NCBI GenBank assembly: GCA_964636545.1
Contig: CAZWSR010000001.1
Span: 80,007 to 144,006 of the forward strand
Reading direction: 5' to 3'
Length of the DNA stretch: 64,000 nucleotides
From: Candidatus Undinarchaeota archaeon
Lineage (GTDB): Archaea; Undinarchaeota; Undinarchaeia; Undinarchaeales; UBA543
The notes under the pieces are model-generated. The model saw only the letters and a list, made by a program, of their open reading frames with translations, had not been told where the DNA came from and made no database searches. Made by a program: the position numbers and the translations under genes. Positions 4,455 through 55,603 of the stretch are shown in pieces (within the stretch, counting starts at the first letter, position 1; each line of letters starts with the position of its first letter).

Positions 4455-4522
4455 AAAGTATTAATACTCCCCTATTTAAAAATTTGTTGTTCTTAGAATT
4501 TGTTGGGGGAGCGTATGCTATA

Positions 4523-6100
4523 ATGGAAAAAATAATACCAGACACAAGCGTGTTGATAAAAGGAAATCTTTCAGAACTAGTGGAAACTGGAAAACTGAAA
4601 GGAGAGATAATTATTCTAGAAATAGTTCTTTCTGAGCTTGAGAATCAGGCAAACAAGAAACAGAAGATTGGTTTTAAAGGACTAGAGGAACTTGGAAAGC
4701 TGAAAAAGTTTTCTGATGATAAGAAAATCACATTAACTTTTCATGGAAACAGGCCAACTCCTGATGAAATAAAGGCAGCAAAATTCGGAGCAATTGATTC
4801 TGCAATTCGGGATGCTGCAGTGAAGTTGGAAGCAAAATTACTAACTGCTGATTATGTTATGTTTTTGACTGCAAAAGCAAGAGGAATTGAGTGCGAGCAT
4901 ATTGAAACAGAAGTTGCAGAAACACTTGAGATTGAGAAACTTTTTGATAAGGAAACAATGAGCATTCATCTGAAACTCGGAACTAAACCGCTTGCGAAAA
5001 AAGGAATGCCCGGAAAAGTCAGATTGGAGAAAATTTCTGATAAAGAAACTACTGAAGAAGAGCTTGATAGACTAATCAAGGAAATTATTGATTATGGCAG
5101 AGAGAACAAGAGAATAGAAATCAGTATGCGCGGAGCAACTGTTGTGCAGATGGAAAATATTCGGATTTCAATTACAGAACCCCCATTTTCAGATGCTACT
5201 GAAATTACTGCTGTTAGACCGATTATTAAGGTTAGTTTGAATGATTACAAAATGAGCGATAAACTGCGAAAACGATTAGAGGAAAAAGCAGAAGGTGTTT
5301 TCATTTGCGGACCACCTGGTGCAGGAAAATCCAGTTTTGCAGCTGCTCTTGCTGAATTTTATCAGAGACGTGGCGCTATTGTGAAAACAATGGAGAATCC
5401 ACGAGATTTGCAAGTTAATAAAAATATTACACAGTATGCACCACTTGAAAAATCAATGGAGAAAACTTCAGATATTTTGCTTTTGGTTAGACCTGACTAT
5501 ACAATTTATGATGAAGTTAGGAAAAGCGTAGACTTTAGAATTTTCGGAGATATGCGATTAGCAGGTGTTGGAATGGTTGGAGTAACGCATGCAAGTGAGC
5601 CAATTGACGCAATTCAGCGAATGGTTAGCAGACTAGAGCTTGGGCAGATTCCACACATTGTTGATACAATAATTTACATTAAGGATGCTAAGATTCGTAA
5701 GATTTACGAAACTAGAATGTCTGTGAAAGTTCCTGGTGGAATGAAAGATGATGACTTGGCAAGACCAGTTGTTGAAGTTCTTGATTTTGAAACTGGAAAA
5801 GTTGAGTATGAAATTTACACTTTTGGAGACCAGACAGTTGTTATGGGAACTGATAATCAGCCAACTGAAGTTGAAGCAAATATGACTGAAGGAAGATCAG
5901 AGTATATTATTAATTTTAACTCTGAAGCTGCTGGGAAAGAAATTACTTGCTATGCTGGACGGAACTTTTTGTTTAAAGTGCGACTAGGAAAAAGAGGAGA
6001 AGTTCGGATTCCGAAAAAGAATGCTGTTGGTGGAAAGATTAAAAGAAGTCAGAGGTATGGAGATAGGATTAAGGGTTATCTGGCGGAGAATTTAGAGTAA
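4523..6100 (+). CDS. PIN + P-loop ATPase + KH domain protein (COG1855-type PilT-family ATPase)
   Basis: N-terminal PIN-like region (IIPDTSVLIKG), Walker A FICGPPGAGKSSFAAALAEF, and C-terminal KH-like region. ATG at 4523 has a GGGGGAG SD; the track ORF starts upstream at a TTG. Confidence 0.75.
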   Translation: MEKIIPDTSVLIKGNLSELVETGKLKGEIIILEIVLSELENQANKKQKIGFKGLEELGKLKKFSDDKKITLTFHGNRPTPDEIKAAKFGAIDSAIRDAAVKLEAKLLTADYVMFLTAKARGIECEHIETEVAETLEIEKLFDKETMSIHLKLGTKPLAKKGMPGKVRLEKISDKETTEEELDRLIKEIIDYGRENKRIEISMRGATVVQMENIRISITEPPFSDATEITAVRPIIKVSLNDYKMSDKLRKRLEEKAEGVFICGPPGAGKSSFAAALAEFYQRRGAIVKTMENPRDLQVNKNITQYAPLEKSMEKTSDILLLVRPDYTIYDEVRKSVDFRIFGDMRLAGVGMVGVTHASEPIDAIQRMVSRLELGQIPHIVDTIIYIKDAKIRKIYETRMSVKVPGGMKDDDLARPVVEVLDFETGKVEYEIYTFGDQTVVMGTDNQPTEVEANMTEGRSEYIINFNSEAAGKEITCYAGRNFLFKVRLGKRGEVRIPKKNAVGGKIKRSQRYGDRIKGYLAENLE

Positions 6101-8440: not shown

Positions 8441-8477
8441 CCTCCTGTTAGCTGATAGCTGCCAGCTGTAAGCTGAA
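8441..8477. repeat. family-A tRNA-flanking octamer-word element (CAGCTAAC/TAGCTGAT words)
   Basis: Copies also at 8555-8600, 13217-13250, 18629-18686 and 55561-55596. Every copy abuts a tRNA gene. Confidence 0.6.
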
Positions 8478-8478
8478 A

Positions 8479-8554
8479 TGGGGCCCGGGCCGGGAATTGA
8501 ACTCGGGTCTGAAGATCCACAGTCTTCCATCCTAACCATTAGACTACCCGGGCC
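8479..8554 (-). tRNA. tRNA-His (GTG) with encoded G-1 and CCA
   Basis: Hand-folded: G-1, acceptor GCCCGGG/CCCGGGC, anticodon stem GAAGA/TCTTC, loop CTGTGGA, T-loop TTCAATT, discriminator C, CCA present. Confidence 0.85.
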
Positions 8555-8742
8555 AAATATATAGCTATCAGCTACCTGCTTGCAGCTAACAGAAATAGAA
8601 ACTTTCCTACTACTTAAAACTTTGTCAAAACTAAAACTAGACGAACTTCCTTGTTCAACAATGAAGGCAATCCCTTCTGTTCATCATAGTAGTGACATAT
8701 GCCATATTGGTAGTATATAAAGTTTGTTATGTTGGTTAAGGC

Positions 8743-8793
8743 GTCAGCCCTCGGCCCTCAGGTCCTGACTGCTGATGGCTGATACCTGACACC
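8743..8793. repeat. family-B GC-rich element GTCAGCCCTCGG...GCTGATGGCTGATACCTGACACC
   Basis: Four copies (8743-8793, 11508-11558, 21456-21519, 31453-31502), each within a few nt of a stop codon. Internal GTCAG/CTGAC inverted repeats. Confidence 0.6.
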
Positions 8794-8800
8794 TGTTTCC

Positions 8801-9544
8801 CTATCCATCTTGGATACAATAAATTCTAAAATCACGATTACAGCTAGTTACGCCAGCATCTGTCCATCTGTCATCAGTGCTTGATGCTAAACCATAACTT
8901 CCTGAAAGAGTAGAGGCGCTGTAAGTCCAGTCATAGCATTGAGGTAATGCACCTTTAGTTTTCTCTTTTGTAAAACCCATGTCCTGCGTACCAGTCAAAA
9001 CCATTGCAGCTGGTGGGACTTTATCTCCATTCTCGTCAAACATAATTGGATTTACTAAATTTCCATACGCTAAGTCATCCAAATTTGCAGCAACTGGTTG
9101 ACCCTGCATATTGTAATACGGTCTGTCGCCAGCTCTAAACCGTGTTATAGCATCTAATTGCCTTTCTGAAAGCCATGCCTTAAAATCGCCATCAAGAGAA
9201 GCAGTTTGTGCCATTTCATTACAGCGCTGGTCAGCAGTACGAACACCACGGAGATCTCCTGAAAATTCTTTTGAAGAAACAAAAATCATATTTCCTGGAC
9301 CAGAAATAACTCCATCTGCATTCTTAACCCATTTAATTGGCTCAGCGTCTTTGATATCGAGACCTGAAGCTTCATCAAATGGTAAATTAGAGTATTGTGA
9401 CATGTCAGCTCTAGGGCCAGAACCACCACCCTCATAAAATTTTCCAACAAAACCAAGAGGAGTAGCAGTGAAAAGAAATGCTCCAGCAACAACTATTATA
9501 ATAAGAAATGTTCCGCCAATCACAAGCATCTTGCTACTTTCCAT
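8801..9544 (-). CDS. TM-anchored secreted protein with 4 Cys, possible C-type-lectin-like (FGE-like) C-terminal domain
   Basis: N-terminal TM helix. C-terminus ...QCYDWTYSASTLSGSYGLASSTDDRWTDAGVTSCNRDFRIYCIQDG resembles the W.D..C...F.C end of CLec folds. Confidence 0.6.
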   Translation of the reverse strand: MESSKMLVIGGTFLIIIVVAGAFLFTATPLGFVGKFYEGGGSGPRADMSQYSNLPFDEASGLDIKDAEPIKWVKNADGVISGPGNMIFVSSKEFSGDLRGVRTADQRCNEMAQTASLDGDFKAWLSERQLDAITRFRAGDRPYYNMQGQPVAANLDDLAYGNLVNPIMFDENGDKVPPAAMVLTGTQDMGFTKEKTKGALPQCYDWTYSASTLSGSYGLASSTDDRWTDAGVTSCNRDFRIYCIQDG

Positions 9545-10530: not shown

Positions 10531-11490
10531 ATGGAGACTATGCCAAGCAAATATGAGGTAATAATTGTCGGGTTTGGTCCAGCTGGTCTGACAGCAGGAA
10601 TGTATGCAGCAAGACAAGGACTCAAGACCCTTGTTATTGGAGTTGGGGCACCAGGTGGACAAGTGCTCACCACATTGAAGATTGAGAATTATCCTGGTTT
10701 TGAAGTTGTTAGTGGAAAAGTTTTAAGCATCCTGATGCAGAGACAAGCGCAGAAGCACGGAGCTACTCTTAAAACAGGAGATGTTGTAAAACTGACTAAG
10801 ACTAAGAGTGGAATCGCAGTATATACAGACAAGGGAACAAAATATACTTCAAAAGCAGTTATACTTGCAACTGGAGCAAAATACAAGAATTTAGGTATTC
10901 CAGGAGAAAAAGAATTTATGGGTAAAGGAGTTTCATATTGTACTACTTGTGATGGACCGTTTTTCAAGGGAAAAACAGTTGCTGTAGTTGGTGGCGGGAA
11001 CAGTGCATTAACTTCAGCTATTTATTTAGCTGGATTAGCTAAGAAAGTTTATATTATTCACAGGCGGGATGAATTCCGCGGTGCAGACGCACTTGTTGCA
11101 CAAATAGATGCTAAAGGTATTGAAAAGGTTCTTGATTCTACAAGTGTTGAAGTGAAAGGTGATAAGGTTGTTACTGGACTTGTTGTTGAGAACTTGAAGA
11201 CAAAGAAGAAGAAAGAATTGCCTGTTCAAGGTGTTTTTATCAATATTGGAGTTGCTCCAAGCACAGCAGTTGCTGAGAGTGTTGGAGTTGAATTAGATGA
11301 AGAAAAGTACATTAAAGTAAACAAGAACATGCAGACAAACATACCTGGGGTGTTTGCAGCAGGTGACATGACCGGTGGCATACGGCAGATTGCAACAGCT
11401 GTTGGAGAGGGTTGCTGTGCTGGTTTAATGGCTTACAAGTACATTCGTTCACAAGAAGGAAAGAAGGTTGATGTTGTTGATTGGGATTGA
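10531..11490 (+). CDS. trxB: thioredoxin reductase
   Basis: FAD motif IIVGFGPAGLTAG, redox CTTCDGPFF, NAD(P) motif VVGGGNSA. AGAGGA SD upstream. Confidence 0.85.
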   Translation: METMPSKYEVIIVGFGPAGLTAGMYAARQGLKTLVIGVGAPGGQVLTTLKIENYPGFEVVSGKVLSILMQRQAQKHGATLKTGDVVKLTKTKSGIAVYTDKGTKYTSKAVILATGAKYKNLGIPGEKEFMGKGVSYCTTCDGPFFKGKTVAVVGGGNSALTSAIYLAGLAKKVYIIHRRDEFRGADALVAQIDAKGIEKVLDSTSVEVKGDKVVTGLVVENLKTKKKKELPVQGVFINIGVAPSTAVAESVGVELDEEKYIKVNKNMQTNIPGVFAAGDMTGGIRQIATAVGEGCCAGLMAYKYIRSQEGKKVDVVDWD

Positions 11491-11651
11491 AAAACAGGTG
11501 TCAGCAGTCAGCCCTCGGCAGTCAGGTGCCTGACAGCTGATGGCCGATACCTGATACCTTTCACAAATTTAACCAACACTGACATATGTCATTACTAACA
11601 ACACATAAATACTCTATTTATGTATGGATTAGCTAAGGAGGATGATTAAAC

Positions 11652-13169: not shown

Positions 13170-13263
13170 TAAAGAGTAGGAGGGTTGGGACTTATTTAAA
13201 GTTTGTTGAAAAATATCTGATAGCTGACAGCTGGTAGCTGTAAGCTTTAGCCAATTTCAAAAG

Positions 13264-13340: not shown

Positions 13341-13449
13341 CGATGGTGTTTCCTGATGAACAAATTTCACACTTAACCAAGCGCGTTATAGCGGCGCAGC
13401 CGCATCTCATCCTCCGCGAGAAGGCGGAGCTACGAATACACCCCCAACT

Positions 13450-17149: not shown

Positions 17150-17206
17150 TGTACAGAGAAAGACTGATTTGGCTTTATAAAGTATTGCTAAAAAAAAATC
17201 TAAAGT

Positions 17207-17274
17207 GGAGCTGGGGCGCAGGGGCGCCGTGTTGTTTTTCGACTCTCCAGCCCTGCGGCTCTACGGTGCCCCAG
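17207..17274. repeat. family-C GC-rich element containing tandem GGGGCGCA octamers
   Basis: GGAGCTGGGGCGCAGGGGCGCCGTG...ACGGTGCCCCAG imperfect hairpin in a divergent promoter region. GGGGCGCA x3 recurs in frame in dtdA (40284-40316). Confidence 0.55.
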
Positions 17275-18414: not shown

Positions 18415-18626
18415 GGGCCTATAGCCTAGTCTGGATAAGGCGGCAGCCTTCTAACGGCCGCAAAATCGGCCGGCGCTTTGCGCTGCATTCAGCAGAACCT
18501 CAACAGGTTAAGCTGAAGCAGCGTGGCTCGCACACATAGGTGAAAAACCAAATATGTGCGCGCTCGCCGGACCTTTGAGGTTTGGAAGAGAGCTGCAAAT
18601 CGGGGGTTCAAATCCCCTTGGGCCCA
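18415..18626 (+). tRNA. tRNA-Arg (TCT) with about 137-nt intron (about 18454-18590) at canonical 37/38
   Basis: 5' exon GGGCCTA-TA-GCCT..AGGC-G-GCAGC-CTTCTA. 3' exon A-GCTGC-AAATC-GGGGG-TTCAAAT-CCCCT-TGGGCCC-A. Intron GAAG pairs with exon CTTC (BHB-compatible). Confidence 0.75.
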
Positions 18627-18698
18627 TCTCAGCTAACAGCTACCTGCTAACAGCTAACCTGTTCTGGTAGCTGGAAGCTGTAACCAACAATTAGCATT

Positions 18699-20915: not shown

Positions 20916-21449
20916 GTGGTATTGAAAGGACACACATTGGACATCATATCTTTAGTGCTAATTTTCGTTCTTTCACGGTTTGTAATGCCAGAACACACTC
21001 GTCTTTTGATCTTGATAATTTTTATATGTATTTTAAGTAGATCAAATTTTGTTTATCATTCAGTAAATCTAGAGATTCATAGTATTTTGATGGTGTTTAT
21101 CGCAATAACATATGGATTCTGGCCTTGTTTTTTTATTGCGATAATGTCAACGTGGCCAGCAAAAAGTTTGAGTGGATGGATGGGAATTTACAATCCAATA
21201 TTGACAGGAATGGATACAATACACATGGTTTTTGTTGCGTTATTTGCTAGCTTGCTATCGATTCACACTTATTTCATACCTGCTATGCTGATACTATTCT
21301 TTGCTGAATTTATTAGAGAAGGATTTAGATTCTTCACATTCCATGAAAACTTTATTAAATACACAATAATGGGTACATTTTTCATGATAATGTTTTATTT
21401 AGCAATGAAGAACATCCCACATATTTTCATAAATTTCATTGGTGGATAA
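20916..21449 (+). CDS. membrane protein, unknown (GTG start in track)
   Basis: Hydrophobic 177-aa ORF. Confidence 0.5.
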   Translation: MVLKGHTLDIISLVLIFVLSRFVMPEHTRLLILIIFICILSRSNFVYHSVNLEIHSILMVFIAITYGFWPCFFIAIMSTWPAKSLSGWMGIYNPILTGMDTIHMVFVALFASLLSIHTYFIPAMLILFFAEFIREGFRFFTFHENFIKYTIMGTFFMIMFYLAMKNIPHIFINFIGG

Positions 21450-21542
21450 AGACAGGTAACAGCCCTGAGCCCTCAGGTGTCAGGTCGTCCTGACTGCTGA
21501 TGGCTGAATGCTGACACCCTAACCAATTTCAAAAAAGATGAG

Positions 21543-21616
21543 CAGGCCCGCCGGAATTTGAATCCGGGTCTGCGGCTCCGCAAGCCACTATGATATCCAA
21601 GCTACACTACGGGCCT
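21543..21616 (-). tRNA. tRNA-Arg (GCG)
   Basis: AGGCCCG/CGGGCCT acceptor, anticodon stem GTGGC/GCCGC, loop TTGCGGA, T-arm CCGGA-TTCAAAT-TCCGG, discriminator G. One D-stem mismatch. Confidence 0.7.
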
Positions 21617-30272: not shown

Positions 30273-30359
30273 GATTCAGGGTATGTTAAGTTGTTTTATA
30301 AAGGTTATTATATGACACTAAAAACAAGATATATATACAGGAGTATACACTTTTTAAAC

Positions 30360-31137: not shown

Positions 31138-31422
31138 ATGGGGATAGGAATTTACTTCTTTGCAGGAGTGGCGATAGTAGTTGCTGTTTTAGCTTATTTA
31201 ATATATTTTCAAAAGGACCCATTTAAGGTTATTACAAAGCATCCAAGCTTATCAGGAAGGATTGAGCCGATAAAACCAAGTGGGAAAGAATCAGCACCAG
31301 TAACTGGTGTTTGTGGAATGTGTGGCGACCAGGTGACAATGCCGTTTAAGTGTAAATTCTGTAAAGGGCTTTATTGTGAGAATCATCGGTTGCCTGAAGA
31401 TCATGATTGTGACGGGGTTTAG
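31138..31422 (+). CDS. membrane protein with AN1-type zinc finger
   Basis: N-terminal TM helix, then CGMCGDQVTMPFKCKFCKGLYCENHRLPEDHDC (AN1 pattern). Confidence 0.65.
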   Translation: MGIGIYFFAGVAIVVAVLAYLIYFQKDPFKVITKHPSLSGRIEPIKPSGKESAPVTGVCGMCGDQVTMPFKCKFCKGLYCENHRLPEDHDCDGV

Positions 31423-31577
31423 CTTGGATAACGAATTTAGTTACTTTGGTATCGGCTGTCAGCCCTCAGCAGTCAGGGCCTGATGGCTGAATGCTGACAC
31501 CTTAACCAATAGGGCAAACCTTTATATACCAAATACACTACTCCAAAGTAGTGACAAACGTCACTGGTGGTTAAAAA

Positions 31578-40153: not shown

Positions 40154-40967
40154 AAAAATCCTTTACTGGACCAAGAATCCAGCAGCTCAGAATATTATGA
40201 AACAGTTTAATGAGCTTGGAGTAGATGTAGAAGTTTTTGAAACAGAGAAGGATTTTTTGTATTTGACTGATGAGGATATTAACGGGGCGCAGGGGCGCAG
40301 GGGCGCAGGGGCTCAGACTGATTTATTGATATTTCCAAGCACGCACAAGAGCGCTGCAAATAAAAAGTCATTAACTATTCACGCTACAGGTAATTTTGGG
40401 AATGCTGATTATGGTGGAGAGCCAAAGAAATTGAATCCAACAAGTTCTGAGGCGATTGCAATAGGACTACGCAGTATGGCGAATCAGGCACTAGGTAGTA
40501 GGCAGGGGGCAGTAGGTTTTGAAGTTTGTTTGGAAGTAACACATCATGGACCGACAATTAAAACTCCGTTAGTTTTTATTGAAATTGGTTCAACTGAAGA
40601 AGAATGGGGAAATGTGGAAGCTGGGAAGGTTATTGCAAATGCTATTAAGGATATTATTGAATACCTCAAACCCCCAACCCCAAACCCCAAACCTTTCACA
40701 AACTACATCGGCTTCGGCGGTCCTCACTATGCACCAAGCTTTACAAAAAAAATTATTGAAAATGAGAATATTGCAATTGGCCATATTTTGCCAAAATATC
40801 AGCAAGATAATGTTACTAAAGATATTATTCAGCAAATGTTAGATGGAAGTAATGCAAAGAAAGCTGTTTTTGATTGGGATGGAATGAATTCTGAGCAGAG
40901 GAATAAGGCTGTTGGGATTTTAGATGAGTTGGGGATTGAGTGGTGTAAGACAAAGGAATTAGTTTAA
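40146..40967 (+). CDS. dtdA: D-aminoacyl-tRNA deacylase, archaeal type (DtdA)
   Basis: THHGPT, FIEIGSTEEEWG, GFGGPHYAP, IGHILPKY as in Pyrococcus DtdA. Two GC-rich repeat insertions lie in frame. Confidence 0.8.
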   Translation: MNTKILYWTKNPAAQNIMKQFNELGVDVEVFETEKDFLYLTDEDINGAQGRRGAGAQTDLLIFPSTHKSAANKKSLTIHATGNFGNADYGGEPKKLNPTSSEAIAIGLRSMANQALGSRQGAVGFEVCLEVTHHGPTIKTPLVFIEIGSTEEEWGNVEAGKVIANAIKDIIEYLKPPTPNPKPFTNYIGFGGPHYAPSFTKKIIENENIAIGHILPKYQQDNVTKDIIQQMLDGSNAKKAVFDWDGMNSEQRNKAVGILDELGIEWCKTKELV

Positions 40968-55560: not shown

Positions 55561-55603
55561 CTCATCAGCTATCGGCTAACAGCCAACAGCTATCAAACTT
55601 GTT

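Follow-up and report, generated by a model that had tools for sequence, protein, structure and literature searches.

The 64-kb window analysed here, a stretch of 64,000 nucleotides from a Candidatus Undinarchaeota archaeon (assembly GCA_964636545.1, contig CAZWSR010000001.1, positions 80,007 to 144,006), carries four GC-rich imperfect palindromes of 60-80 bases, whose arms are strings of 7-base CTGA units and which adjoin the ends of unrelated genes. On balance we consider it probable, although far from settled, that these elements are copies of a non-coding, non-autonomous dispersed palindrome, comparable to repetitive extragenic palindromes (REPs) and MITEs (miniature inverted-repeat transposable elements), and belonging to the heptameric-repeat kind. 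According to this explanation, a defined unit of about 70-85 bp would have been copied into very short spacers, each bounded by a stop codon and by the promoter or tRNA gene that comes next; in the compact genome of a member of the Undinarchaeales (DPANN archaea) such spacers would be essentially the only place tolerating an insertion. After insertion, the arms would lengthen or shorten in 7-nt steps by slippage and acquire point mutations. The activity that mobilises the elements may be supplied in trans.

A first-pass annotation, made from the letters of the window alone, had drawn attention to four related elements and had offered three identities for them, i.e. structured terminator or RNA-stability elements, a MITE-like family, or small RNAs. 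The presence of the elements at the places given there was confirmed by consensus matching, a profile search and base composition. The 22-nt consensus of the 3' half (CTGATGGCYGAWWSCTGAYACC) has 4 exact matches in the window and none in 100 shuffled versions of it. A profile hidden Markov model built from the four cores and run with nhmmer recovered only those four, all on the plus strand, with 45-61 bits and E-values of 1e-12 to 1e-17; no further match rose above noise in the 64-kb window, to which the copy count applies. The GC content of the elements is 0.58-0.60 against 0.376 for the window, which bears out the earlier estimate of about 60% in a low-GC genome. The palindrome core spans 55-65 nt with 24-30 paired positions, and the four copies are 80-90% identical across the whole of it, down to an irregular unit (AGCCCTC) and the way in which the variable positions are ordered.

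The arms are degenerate heptamer arrays of the form (NNNTCAG)n, loop, (CTGANNN)n. The 5' arm contains three to four NNNTCAG units (e.g. GGTGTCAG CAGTCAG CCCTCGG CAGTCAGG) and the 3' arm three to four CTGANNN units (e.g. CCTGACAG CTGATGG CCGATAC CTGATACC). Within the unit, a core of 4-5 nt, (G/C)CTGA, is conserved, while 2-3 spacer positions vary. Lag-7 identity reaches 0.54-0.60 in all four copies compared with 0.1-0.3 at other lags, and the window contains 10 tracts with CTG at period 7 versus 0.16 in shuffled sequences. The copies differ in length by whole heptads (the 3' arm of the element at 31453 has three units, those of the others four), and the orthologous elements of two related archaeal contigs, L251 and L271, differ from the window copies by whole units as well. 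Since each CTGA contains TGA, none of the three reading frames runs through three consecutive CTGA units, whereas all of them run through the TCAG arm. The first-pass annotation missed this 7-nt periodicity, together with the kinship of the elements to heptamer tracts flanking tRNA genes and the occurrence of the same design in bacteria and phages (see below).

The GTCAG/CTGAC inverted repeats noticed earlier are real, and they form part of a larger structure, as each of the four elements folds as one long imperfect hairpin of 24-30 bp, with energies of -27 to -37 kcal/mol and, relative to dinucleotide shuffles, z-scores of -3.3 to -5.4. In the predicted stems, runs of 3-9 pairs are separated about every 7 nt by symmetric 1x1 or 2x2 mismatches located at the variable positions of the heptads. 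Beyond the arms, the copies have non-heptamer ends in common, namely AAACAGGT(G/A)TCAG, and TTGGTTAAGG or its complement CCTTAACCAA. With the outer ends TTGGTTAAGGYGTCAG and CTGACRCCTTAACCAA, the whole element is an imperfect inverted repeat bearing terminal inverted repeats, and its general form can be written as an AAACAGG or TTGGTTAAGG end, (NNNTCAG)3-4, a short loop, (CTGANNN)3-4 and a CCTTAACCAA end. The shared ends (AAACAGGT, CCTTAACCAA) could not have been created by slippage in situ and therefore point to copying between sites rather than local growth. It had been stated that CCTTAACCAA follows three of the copies; on the strand of the cores this is the case only at 31500 (exact) and 21517 (one mismatch), whereas at 8732 the motif lies on the opposite side as its reverse complement and at 11508 it is interrupted (CCTTTCACAAATTTAACCAA).

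Although the positions of the elements had been given correctly, the palindromes are longer than first delimited, extending over approximately 8732-8800, 11491-11579, 21450-21526 and 31446-31509 (copies 1 to 4). Copies 1, 2 and 4 are situated between a gene end and the next promoter, and copy 3 between a gene end and a convergent tRNA-Arg gene. The cores of copies 2-4 point in the same direction as their upstream genes. Pairing begins 3-6 nt past the stop codons of trxB (about 5-6 nt) and of a gene for a 177-aa protein (3-5 nt), and 25 nt past that of an AN1 zinc-finger gene; measured from the start coordinate that the first-pass annotation assigned to copy 4, the latter distance is 30 nt. The right end of copy 1 is 7 nt from the minus-strand stop codon of a CLec-like gene. 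The identities of the preceding genes were as reported; what had been overlooked is that the CLec-like gene is encoded on the minus strand, so that the core of copy 1 is antisense.

Copy 1 (8732-8800, plus-strand core) adjoins the stop codon (8801-8803) of this gene, which encodes a CLec/Endostatin-fold protein (8801-9544, minus strand; Pfam PF06482). It is composed of a TTGGTTAAGG end (8732-8741), a 5' arm of TCAG-type heptads (8740-8762), a loop at 8763, a 3' arm of CTGA-type heptads (8764-8793) and a ACCTGTTT end reaching 8800, and it folds at -30.1 kcal/mol (z -3.9). An alignment of the flanks hinted that copy 1 might be a reverse-complement copy; for the core this was ruled out by pairwise identity with copy 2 (46/51 positions in plus orientation, 35/51 as the reverse complement) and by nhmmer (58 bits on the plus strand, 25 bits on the minus strand). 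As the core is plus-oriented and the CLec-like gene is on the minus strand, the core is antisense to the gene whose end it adjoins; it is in fact antisense to both of its neighbours. The AAACAGGT-type end faces the stop codon all the same, as in two other copies. It is the outer ends alone whose arrangement follows the orientation of the gene.

Copy 2 (11491-11579, plus strand) follows trxB (10531-11490, plus strand; stop codon 11488-11490) and consists of the head AAAACAGG (11491-11498), a 5' arm (11496-11526), a loop (11527-11528), a 3' arm of four heptads (11529-11559) and the tail TTCACAAATTTAACCAACAC (11560-11579). It folds at -37.1 kcal/mol (z -5.4), scores 61 bits in nhmmer, and is followed by a conserved TGACATATGTCA box and the promoter of a DUF5679 gene. 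Copy 3 (21450-21526, plus strand) lies behind the gene of the 177-aa protein (20916-21449, stop codon 21447-21449, no Pfam match) and is convergent with tRNA-Arg(GCG) (21542-21616, minus strand). Its head is AGACAGG, followed by the 5' arm (21453-21484), the loop (21485-21488), the 3' arm (21489-21518) and the tail CTAACCAA (21519-21526); it folds at -32.2 kcal/mol (z -4.7) and scores 56.5 bits. Copy 4 (31446-31509, plus strand) is placed behind the AN1 zinc-finger gene (31138-31422, stop codon 31420-31422) and ahead of a Band_7 promoter. It starts with a TTTGG end and continues with a 5' arm (31448-31477), a loop at 31478, a 3' arm with three heptads, one fewer than in the other copies (31479-31501), and the tail TTAACCAA (31502-31509); its folding energy is -27.2 to -33.8 kcal/mol and its nhmmer score 45 bits.

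Comparison with syntenic contigs of related archaea, which were recovered through trxB and Band_7 homologues, revealed both filled and empty versions of the sites. The trxB site is empty in L243, L245, L247 and L272 (trxB 62-69% identical), where the stop codon directly abuts a conserved box, TGACAnnTGTCATTAG (TGACAnnTGTCA), followed by the DUF5679 promoter; in the window there are about 88 extra bases ahead of that box. In L271, a closer relative (trxB 74% identical), the site holds an element that has the tail ACAAATTTAACCAAC in common with the window copy but strongly diverged heptads, and that folds at -37 kcal/mol despite this divergence. The CLec site is empty in L243 and L245, in which the stop codon runs straight to the AAACTTTAAATA promoter. 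The AN1 site is empty in L248 and L253 (Band_7 89% and 86% identical) and filled in L251 (Band_7 86% identical) by a diverged orthologue whose loop measures 12 nt and which has an additional heptad. At a fourth site the pattern is reversed: a heptamer hairpin, with a TATA-like box about 25 nt upstream, occupies a divergent intergenic region of L248 (8738-8826), and none is present at the corresponding place of the window (30296-30330). Although diverged in sequence, the orthologous elements of L271 and L251 fold at -35 to -42 kcal/mol.

There is thus insertion polymorphism at four orthologous sites. As the stop codon abuts the next promoter in the relatives whose site is empty, the elements are insertions into the spacer between the two, which is otherwise only 5-15 nt long, and their patchy presence among syntenic relatives shows that they are gained and lost on a short evolutionary scale. 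Of the three identities offered initially, the MITE-like one is therefore best supported, by the shared core, the shared non-heptamer ends and the filled and empty versions of the same sites.

Two further conserved sequences were observed near these sites. A palindromic box, (T)GACAnnnGTCA (TGACATATGTCA, GTGACAAACGTCAC), occurs beside the TATA boxes of three unrelated genes (11580-11591, 31553-31566 and about 8690-8703) and is kept in L243, L245, L247, L248, L253, L271 and L272, with the hairpin present or not. It is probably the operator of a transcription factor. Between the promoter of the CLec-like gene and tRNA-His (about 8625-8690, minus strand), there is a sequence, ACTACTATGATGAACAGAAGGGATTGCCTTCAYTGTTGAACAAGGAAGTT, that L243, L245 and L247 have conserved; it lies downstream of B recognition element (BRE)/TATA signals. 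This sequence might represent a small RNA or else a micro-ORF of 10 codons (MMNRRDCLHC), with a synonymous CAT/CAC difference between genomes; a canonical box D is absent from it.

The stability of the hairpins raises the question of whether their RNA is under selection. RNAalifold analysis of six sequences gave a 24-pair consensus with an unfavourable covariation term (+2.06). In the same six sequences, 87.9% of the paired cells can pair compared with 85.0% after partner shuffling (a value reached by 11 of 500 shuffles), and three pairs are changed on both sides, as many as in 154 of 500 shuffles. When the 5' arm of one copy was combined with the 3' arm of another, the chimeric hairpins had a mean of -37.8 kcal/mol, down to -55, versus -33.8 for the native ones. 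Chimeras that are as stable as native hairpins, or more so, suggest that the stem mismatches were inherited from a common template and not compensated, and conservation of the arms between copies exceeds complementarity within a copy. Compensatory evolution is not supported, in view of the chimeric pairing and of covariation no higher than in controls. The folding and covariance check suggested in the first-pass annotation consequently had a divided outcome: structure is conserved among the copies, but covariation was not demonstrated.

The strand on which folding is stronger also varies. The plus strand is preferred by 1-6 kcal/mol in the window copies, by 10 in L271 and by 28 in L248, and the opposite strand by about 8 in L251. 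G.U mismatches outnumber A.C mismatches 15 to 10 overall, with opposite directions in L248 (6:0) and L251 (0:5).

The established termination signal in archaea is oligo-T. No T-run follows any of the copies, the sequence after the stems being CCTTAACCAA or TGTTTCC, and a scan for bacterial-type terminators reported none of the four elements. Given also the relatives lacking an element, the antisense core and the non-significant covariation, the terminator or RNA-stability option is tenable only in the sense of an unspecific by-product that a stable 3' hairpin would have. Most likely, the three co-oriented copies are transcribed within the 3' untranslated region of the upstream gene, where a hairpin of -27 to -37 kcal/mol would be at most a generic barrier to 3'->5' decay or read-through. 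By analogy with REP elements, the hairpin may plausibly protect or insulate in this generic way.

The small-RNA option fared worse. Searches of Rfam at the gathering threshold and at E<=1 matched tRNAs only and none of the elements, and no own BRE/TATA promoter was found at the window copies, which start 3-25 nt past stop codons. CTGA and TGATGG words are present in the elements and, as had been remarked, they do not have the spacing of C/D boxes: no C/D boxes at canonical spacing and no Rfam snoRNA or C/D match were detected, and the CTGA words recur every 7 nt within a continuous stem. The idea of a bulge-helix-bulge or other processing stem, considered for the hairpins and for the flanks of tRNA-His, was rejected, because the internal loops are symmetric 1x1 or 2x2 and not 3-nt bulges 4 bp apart; for the tRNA flanks it is additionally contradicted by the absence of the tracts in relatives.

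The same design was found outside the archaea. Pattern scans of bacterial, viral and metagenome sequences were evaluated from the matches listed, so that the counts given below are lower bounds and not a census. Almost all of the matches listed are bacterial contigs with a GC content of 0.36-0.75, from Acidobacteriota, Chitinophagaceae, cyanobacteria, Chloroflexota, Planctomycetota and other groups, and many of them have an identical plan (e.g. GCCGTCAGCCCTCAGCCATCAGG, loop, CTGATGGCTGACGGCTGATGG). The archaeal profile aligns full-length to bacterial hairpins with up to 39 bits, equal to its score on the archaeal orthologue L251. The polarity of the arrays is strict: in 236 bacterial loci the order TCAG array then CTGA array was found 54 times and the everted order 4 times (11 versus 0 when the search anchor was excluded), and viral contigs of IMG/VR had 56 hairpin-type arrangements versus no everted one, which amounts to 110 to 4 for bacteria and viruses combined. 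A long open reading frame (ORF) ends within 25 nt of 31 of the 53 unique bacterial hairpins, and just downstream of bacterial ORF ends there are 96 arrays of the TCAG type as against 36 of the CTGA type. Clustering of the ORFs in the 236 loci revealed no recurring gene family next to the bacterial copies beyond common housekeeping-type ones, a label given by eye to seven representative sequences and not by a scan against a profile library. In a Terriglobales metagenome-assembled genome (L022, 1560-2280), we observed at least 8 tandem units of about 94 nt, each ending in a variable number of CTGAYGG heptamers.

The arm-only pattern matched at least 120 stretches in IMG/VR contigs; patterns specific to the archaeal elements had few scattered matches in viral sequences, which were taken as chance, no expectation having been computed. 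The 34-kb viral contig IMGVR_UViG_3300045936_000120 (GC 0.6; segments L306, L348 and L351) has heptamer hairpins at nearly every gene boundary. In this contig the stop codon TAG is often in phase with the first heptad (an AGCNNTC unit), and the last GCTGANN unit ends no more than 11 nt from the next start codon in 7 of 9 cases (segment L351). In such a geometry, the stem would bring the stop codon close to the start codon at its base.

Within the window, related heptamers also accompany tRNA genes. Tracts of AGCTGNN units with a lag-7 identity of 0.59-0.78 adjoin these genes, and CAGCNNN units occur in the 3' trailer of 5 of 8 tRNAs, one of the five being the reverse side of copy 3 (the element at 21456). 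One such tract (termed family A) lies between tRNA-His and the start codon of the histidyl-tRNA synthetase gene (8445-8479; CTG at period 7 five times, lag-7 identity 0.78). It has a complementary partner on the other side of tRNA-His (8563-8592), and the duplex of the two has -40.6 kcal/mol compared with -16 for shuffles. Further tracts were found in the 3' trailers of tRNA-Pro (13217-13246, minus-strand gene, lag-7 identity 0.78) and tRNA-Met (55563-55596, plus strand), while a heptamer hairpin (CAGCTAA... then CTGGTAG...) is located between the intron-containing tRNA-Arg(TCT) and tRNA-Arg(TCG) (18626-18686, plus strand). The tRNA-flank tracts are absent in L247, L248 and L253, and different ones are present in L243; they are one more part of this lineage-specific expansion and no conserved signal for processing.

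Several other features of the window were recorded in passing. The tRNA-Arg(TCT) gene itself (18415-18626, plus strand) has an intron of about 135-140 nt and was missed by ARAGORN; the Rfam tRNA model recognises it with 45.9 bits in the E-value search only, and its orthologue in L253 (399-476) is intronless. Upstream of tRNA-Pro (13368-13440, minus strand), a GC-rich segment precedes GCTTGGTTAAGTGTGAAA, a motif seen also upstream of tRNA-Arg(GCG) in L248 (about 130-190); this segment has TTGGTTAAG in common with one hairpin end and resembles the reverse complement of the trxB-site tails of the window and L271. An octamer, GGGGCGCA, forms about four tandem copies (40283-40329) inside the 5' part of a D-aminoacyl-tRNA deacylase ORF, ahead of the Pfam domain, and similar GGGGCGC-rich stretches occur at 17204-17242 and in L271 (about 200-230). 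A 538-aa protein with an N-terminal PIN domain and a STAND/AAA_16-like NTPase is encoded at 4484-6100 (plus strand), and is possibly of the defence or toxin type. The archaeal traits of the window comprise Sec61-beta, BRE/TATA-type promoters (recognised by eye) and a tRNA with a large intron, and its proteins have exact matches in NCBI MDP7282064.1 and the neighbours of that entry, from a Candidatus Undinarchaeales archaeon.

The explanation by a dispersed REP/MITE-like palindrome has to be set against several others. Its main rival holds that the elements are 3'-end elements maintained by selection, i.e. hairpin terminators, read-through insulators or mRNA-stabilising hairpins that separate tightly packed transcription units. 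All four copies do occupy the interval from a gene end to the promoter that follows or, in one case, to a convergent tRNA gene, three of the four cores are in sense orientation to the upstream gene, the hairpins are much stabler than those of shuffled sequences, and the diverged orthologues of L271 and L251 have retained stable folds. The element of L248 folds well on one strand only, by means of G.U pairs, and TCAG-type arrays are the prevailing ones just past bacterial ORF ends. This rival is weakened, however, by the empty orthologous sites of close syntenic relatives, by the missing oligo-T, by the core of copy 1 being antisense to both neighbours and by covariation that does not exceed controls; strand stability is also inconsistent, the element of L251 folding better on the antisense strand, with 15 G.U to 10 A.C mismatches overall. 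We consider a selected 3' element unlikely, and keep it alive because of the strong single-strand bias of L248 and the position rule in bacteria. It is more doubtful that the elements are arrays of DNA or RNA binding sites for a factor reading one CTGA unit per 7 nt, their hairpin potential being secondary. Heptad operators bound by ribbon-helix-helix repressors and ring-shaped RNA-binding proteins that read triplets at 7-nt spacing are possible analogies. Such a factor would account for the conserved (G/C)CTGA core with its variable spacer positions, for the same core organising the tRNA-flanking tracts, and for a polarity that a bare stem-loop does not need; a post-transcriptional regulator was, moreover, proposed for TAACTGA repeats (MacGregor, PMC4679880). 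On the other hand, no candidate protein is encoded in the window or recurs near the bacterial copies, the range from an archaeon through many bacterial phyla to phages would require a near-universal factor or several independent ones, and patchy presence in close relatives speaks against an essential regulon.

In three kinds of genome the palindrome has the same strict polarity, which suggests that CTGA units might be read in a 7-nt register by some factor. A related and slightly fainter prospect is that (NNNTCAG)n-loop-(CTGANNN)n is a cross-domain punctuation of gene boundaries with fixed polarity, read in this register by conserved machinery. This machinery might consist of the translation apparatus, with termination-reinitiation taking place across the stem, of a nuclease specific for double strands, or of a binding protein as yet unknown. 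If so, the archaeal copies would have been acquired or have arisen by convergence, and would actually control how neighbouring messages are coupled, processed or degraded. There is little to recommend the view that replication slippage made microsatellite-like 7-nt arrays grow independently at each site, no copying from one site to another being involved. Heptamers are indeed the most over-represented class of long simple sequence repeats (SSRs) in prokaryotes (Mrazek 2007, as quoted in PMC4679880 and PMC4692102), copies and orthologues differ by whole heptads, and simple tracts of the same unit lie at tRNA flanks of this genome, but slippage alone cannot reproduce 80-90% core identity with the irregular unit AGCCCTC and the unit order, nor the shared non-heptamer ends. 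Finally, we regard it as very improbable that the elements are independent small-RNA genes, either C/D-box-like ones or hairpin precursors of small RNAs. The CTGA and TGATGG words, the stable hairpins and the TATA-like box of L248 would fit such genes; the lack of any Rfam match even at E<=1, of canonically spaced C/D boxes and of a BRE/TATA at the window copies, which follow stop codons so closely, does not, and neither does their absence at orthologous sites.

Some observations also weigh against the dispersed-palindrome explanation that we prefer. Only four copies were observed in 64 kb, and neither a transposase nor a REP-associated tyrosine transposase (RAYT) or other mobilising-gene candidate was found among the window ORFs (Pfam), nor does one recur next to the bacterial copies in the 236 loci. 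No target-site duplication could be defined at the filled/empty pairs of three loci: AAAC is present on both sides at the CLec site only, and no consistent duplication emerged across the three loci compared. The stop-proximal ends are alike in three copies, and elements of 58-60% GC reside in a genome of 37.6% GC; both features could reflect selection on the sequence rather than neutrality. The element of L248 reaches -45.3 kcal/mol on the plus strand versus -17.7 on the minus strand, with 6 G.U and 0 A.C mismatches, and that of L251 has the opposite asymmetry (G.U:A.C 0:5). A purely DNA-level parasite does not predict such large asymmetry in single elements.

The filled and empty orthologous sites show that a tiny DPANN genome whose spacers measure a few bases still gains and loses GC-rich insertions of 70-90 bp exactly between stop codon and promoter. 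In archaea, palindromic repeats of the dispersed type have received little description, and we found none for DPANN genomes in the open-access literature. In the same literature, no description of CTGA-heptamer palindromes in archaea was found (words of the element sequence match primers only), nor anything relevant on repeats in Undinarchaeota. In many bacteria and phages, gene ends bear this heptamer design too, with a polarity just as strict, yet the design has neither a name nor a known partner protein. Two consequences can be envisaged: (i) if the polarity reflects recognition by a factor, the family would give direct access to the origin and function of heptamer repeats, or (ii) if it does not, this would be an ordinary REP-like repeat, still helpful for following strain-level turnover and as a warning that hairpins of this sort should not be called terminators or small RNAs.

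Among known systems, MITEs resemble the elements in being small and non-coding, with inverted-repeat ends, near-identical dispersed copies and filled and empty orthologous sites. In contrast to MITEs, the whole element is one palindrome instead of terminal repeats flanking a unique core, and no target-site duplication is definable; no parent insertion sequence with matching ends was found within the 64-kb window, and its ORFs include no RNase III (Pfam). The likeness to REPs and bacterial interspersed mosaic elements (BIMEs) concerns short GC-rich imperfect palindromes that are extragenic and mostly downstream of unidirectional or convergent ORFs, mismatches that are conserved between copies, and the view that REPs are transcribed and act as 3' hairpins. 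REPs have stems of 8-9 bp, a whole length of 20-40 bp and a GTAG or CGTC tag, and those of the CGTC type are also devoid of a dedicated transposase (Di Nocera 2013, PMC3733652). The elements described here differ in their heptamer-built stems of 24-30 bp and in the absence of a tag: GTAG occurs in no copy, and CGTC only in copy 1 (GGCGTCAG), where it is part of a heptad. Identity with CGTC-tagged REPs was ruled out on stem length.

The TAACTGA repeats described in Beggiatoaceae, cyanobacteria and Bacteroidetes are located ahead of start codons and are almost all direct, with 169 direct sets and 1 indirect (MacGregor 2015, PMC4679880). They are likewise intergenic heptamers ending in CTGA, with 7-nt indels, admixture of other heptamers and a scattered phylogenetic distribution that suggests transfer, and the CTGA-type arms of the viral contig, which end no more than 11 nt from start codons, recall their position. 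Unlike them, the elements of the window are inverted pairs behind stop codons, with three variable positions in place of TAA.

The closest counterparts are the GGGAATC heptamers of Xanthomonas, with heterogeneous units, mostly four per array, and 70-75 inverted pairs per genome, which are transcribed and preferentially located within 50 bp of stop codons, and the GGGGAYT repeats of Nostoc, which are of the same kind (Rehm et al. 2015, PMC4692102). This kind falls within the long simple sequence repeats (LSSRs) of Mrazek 2007. Like these, the elements have heterogeneous 7-nt units with a conserved core, about four units per array, copy-number steps of 7 nt, and convergent array pairs forming an intergenic stem-loop, preferentially within 50 bp of a stop codon. 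All three traits of heptameric SSRs were thus found, i.e. tandem 7-nt units, length change by whole units, and convergent stem-loop arrays near stop codons. The differences lie in the host, a DPANN archaeon, and in the unit, (G/C)CTGAYN, which is not G-rich and therefore has no G-quadruplex potential, unlike GGGAATC and GGGGAYT. As the window copies are nearly identical over the whole palindrome and have non-heptamer ends in common, they seem to have spread as a unit, and not only by growth in place.

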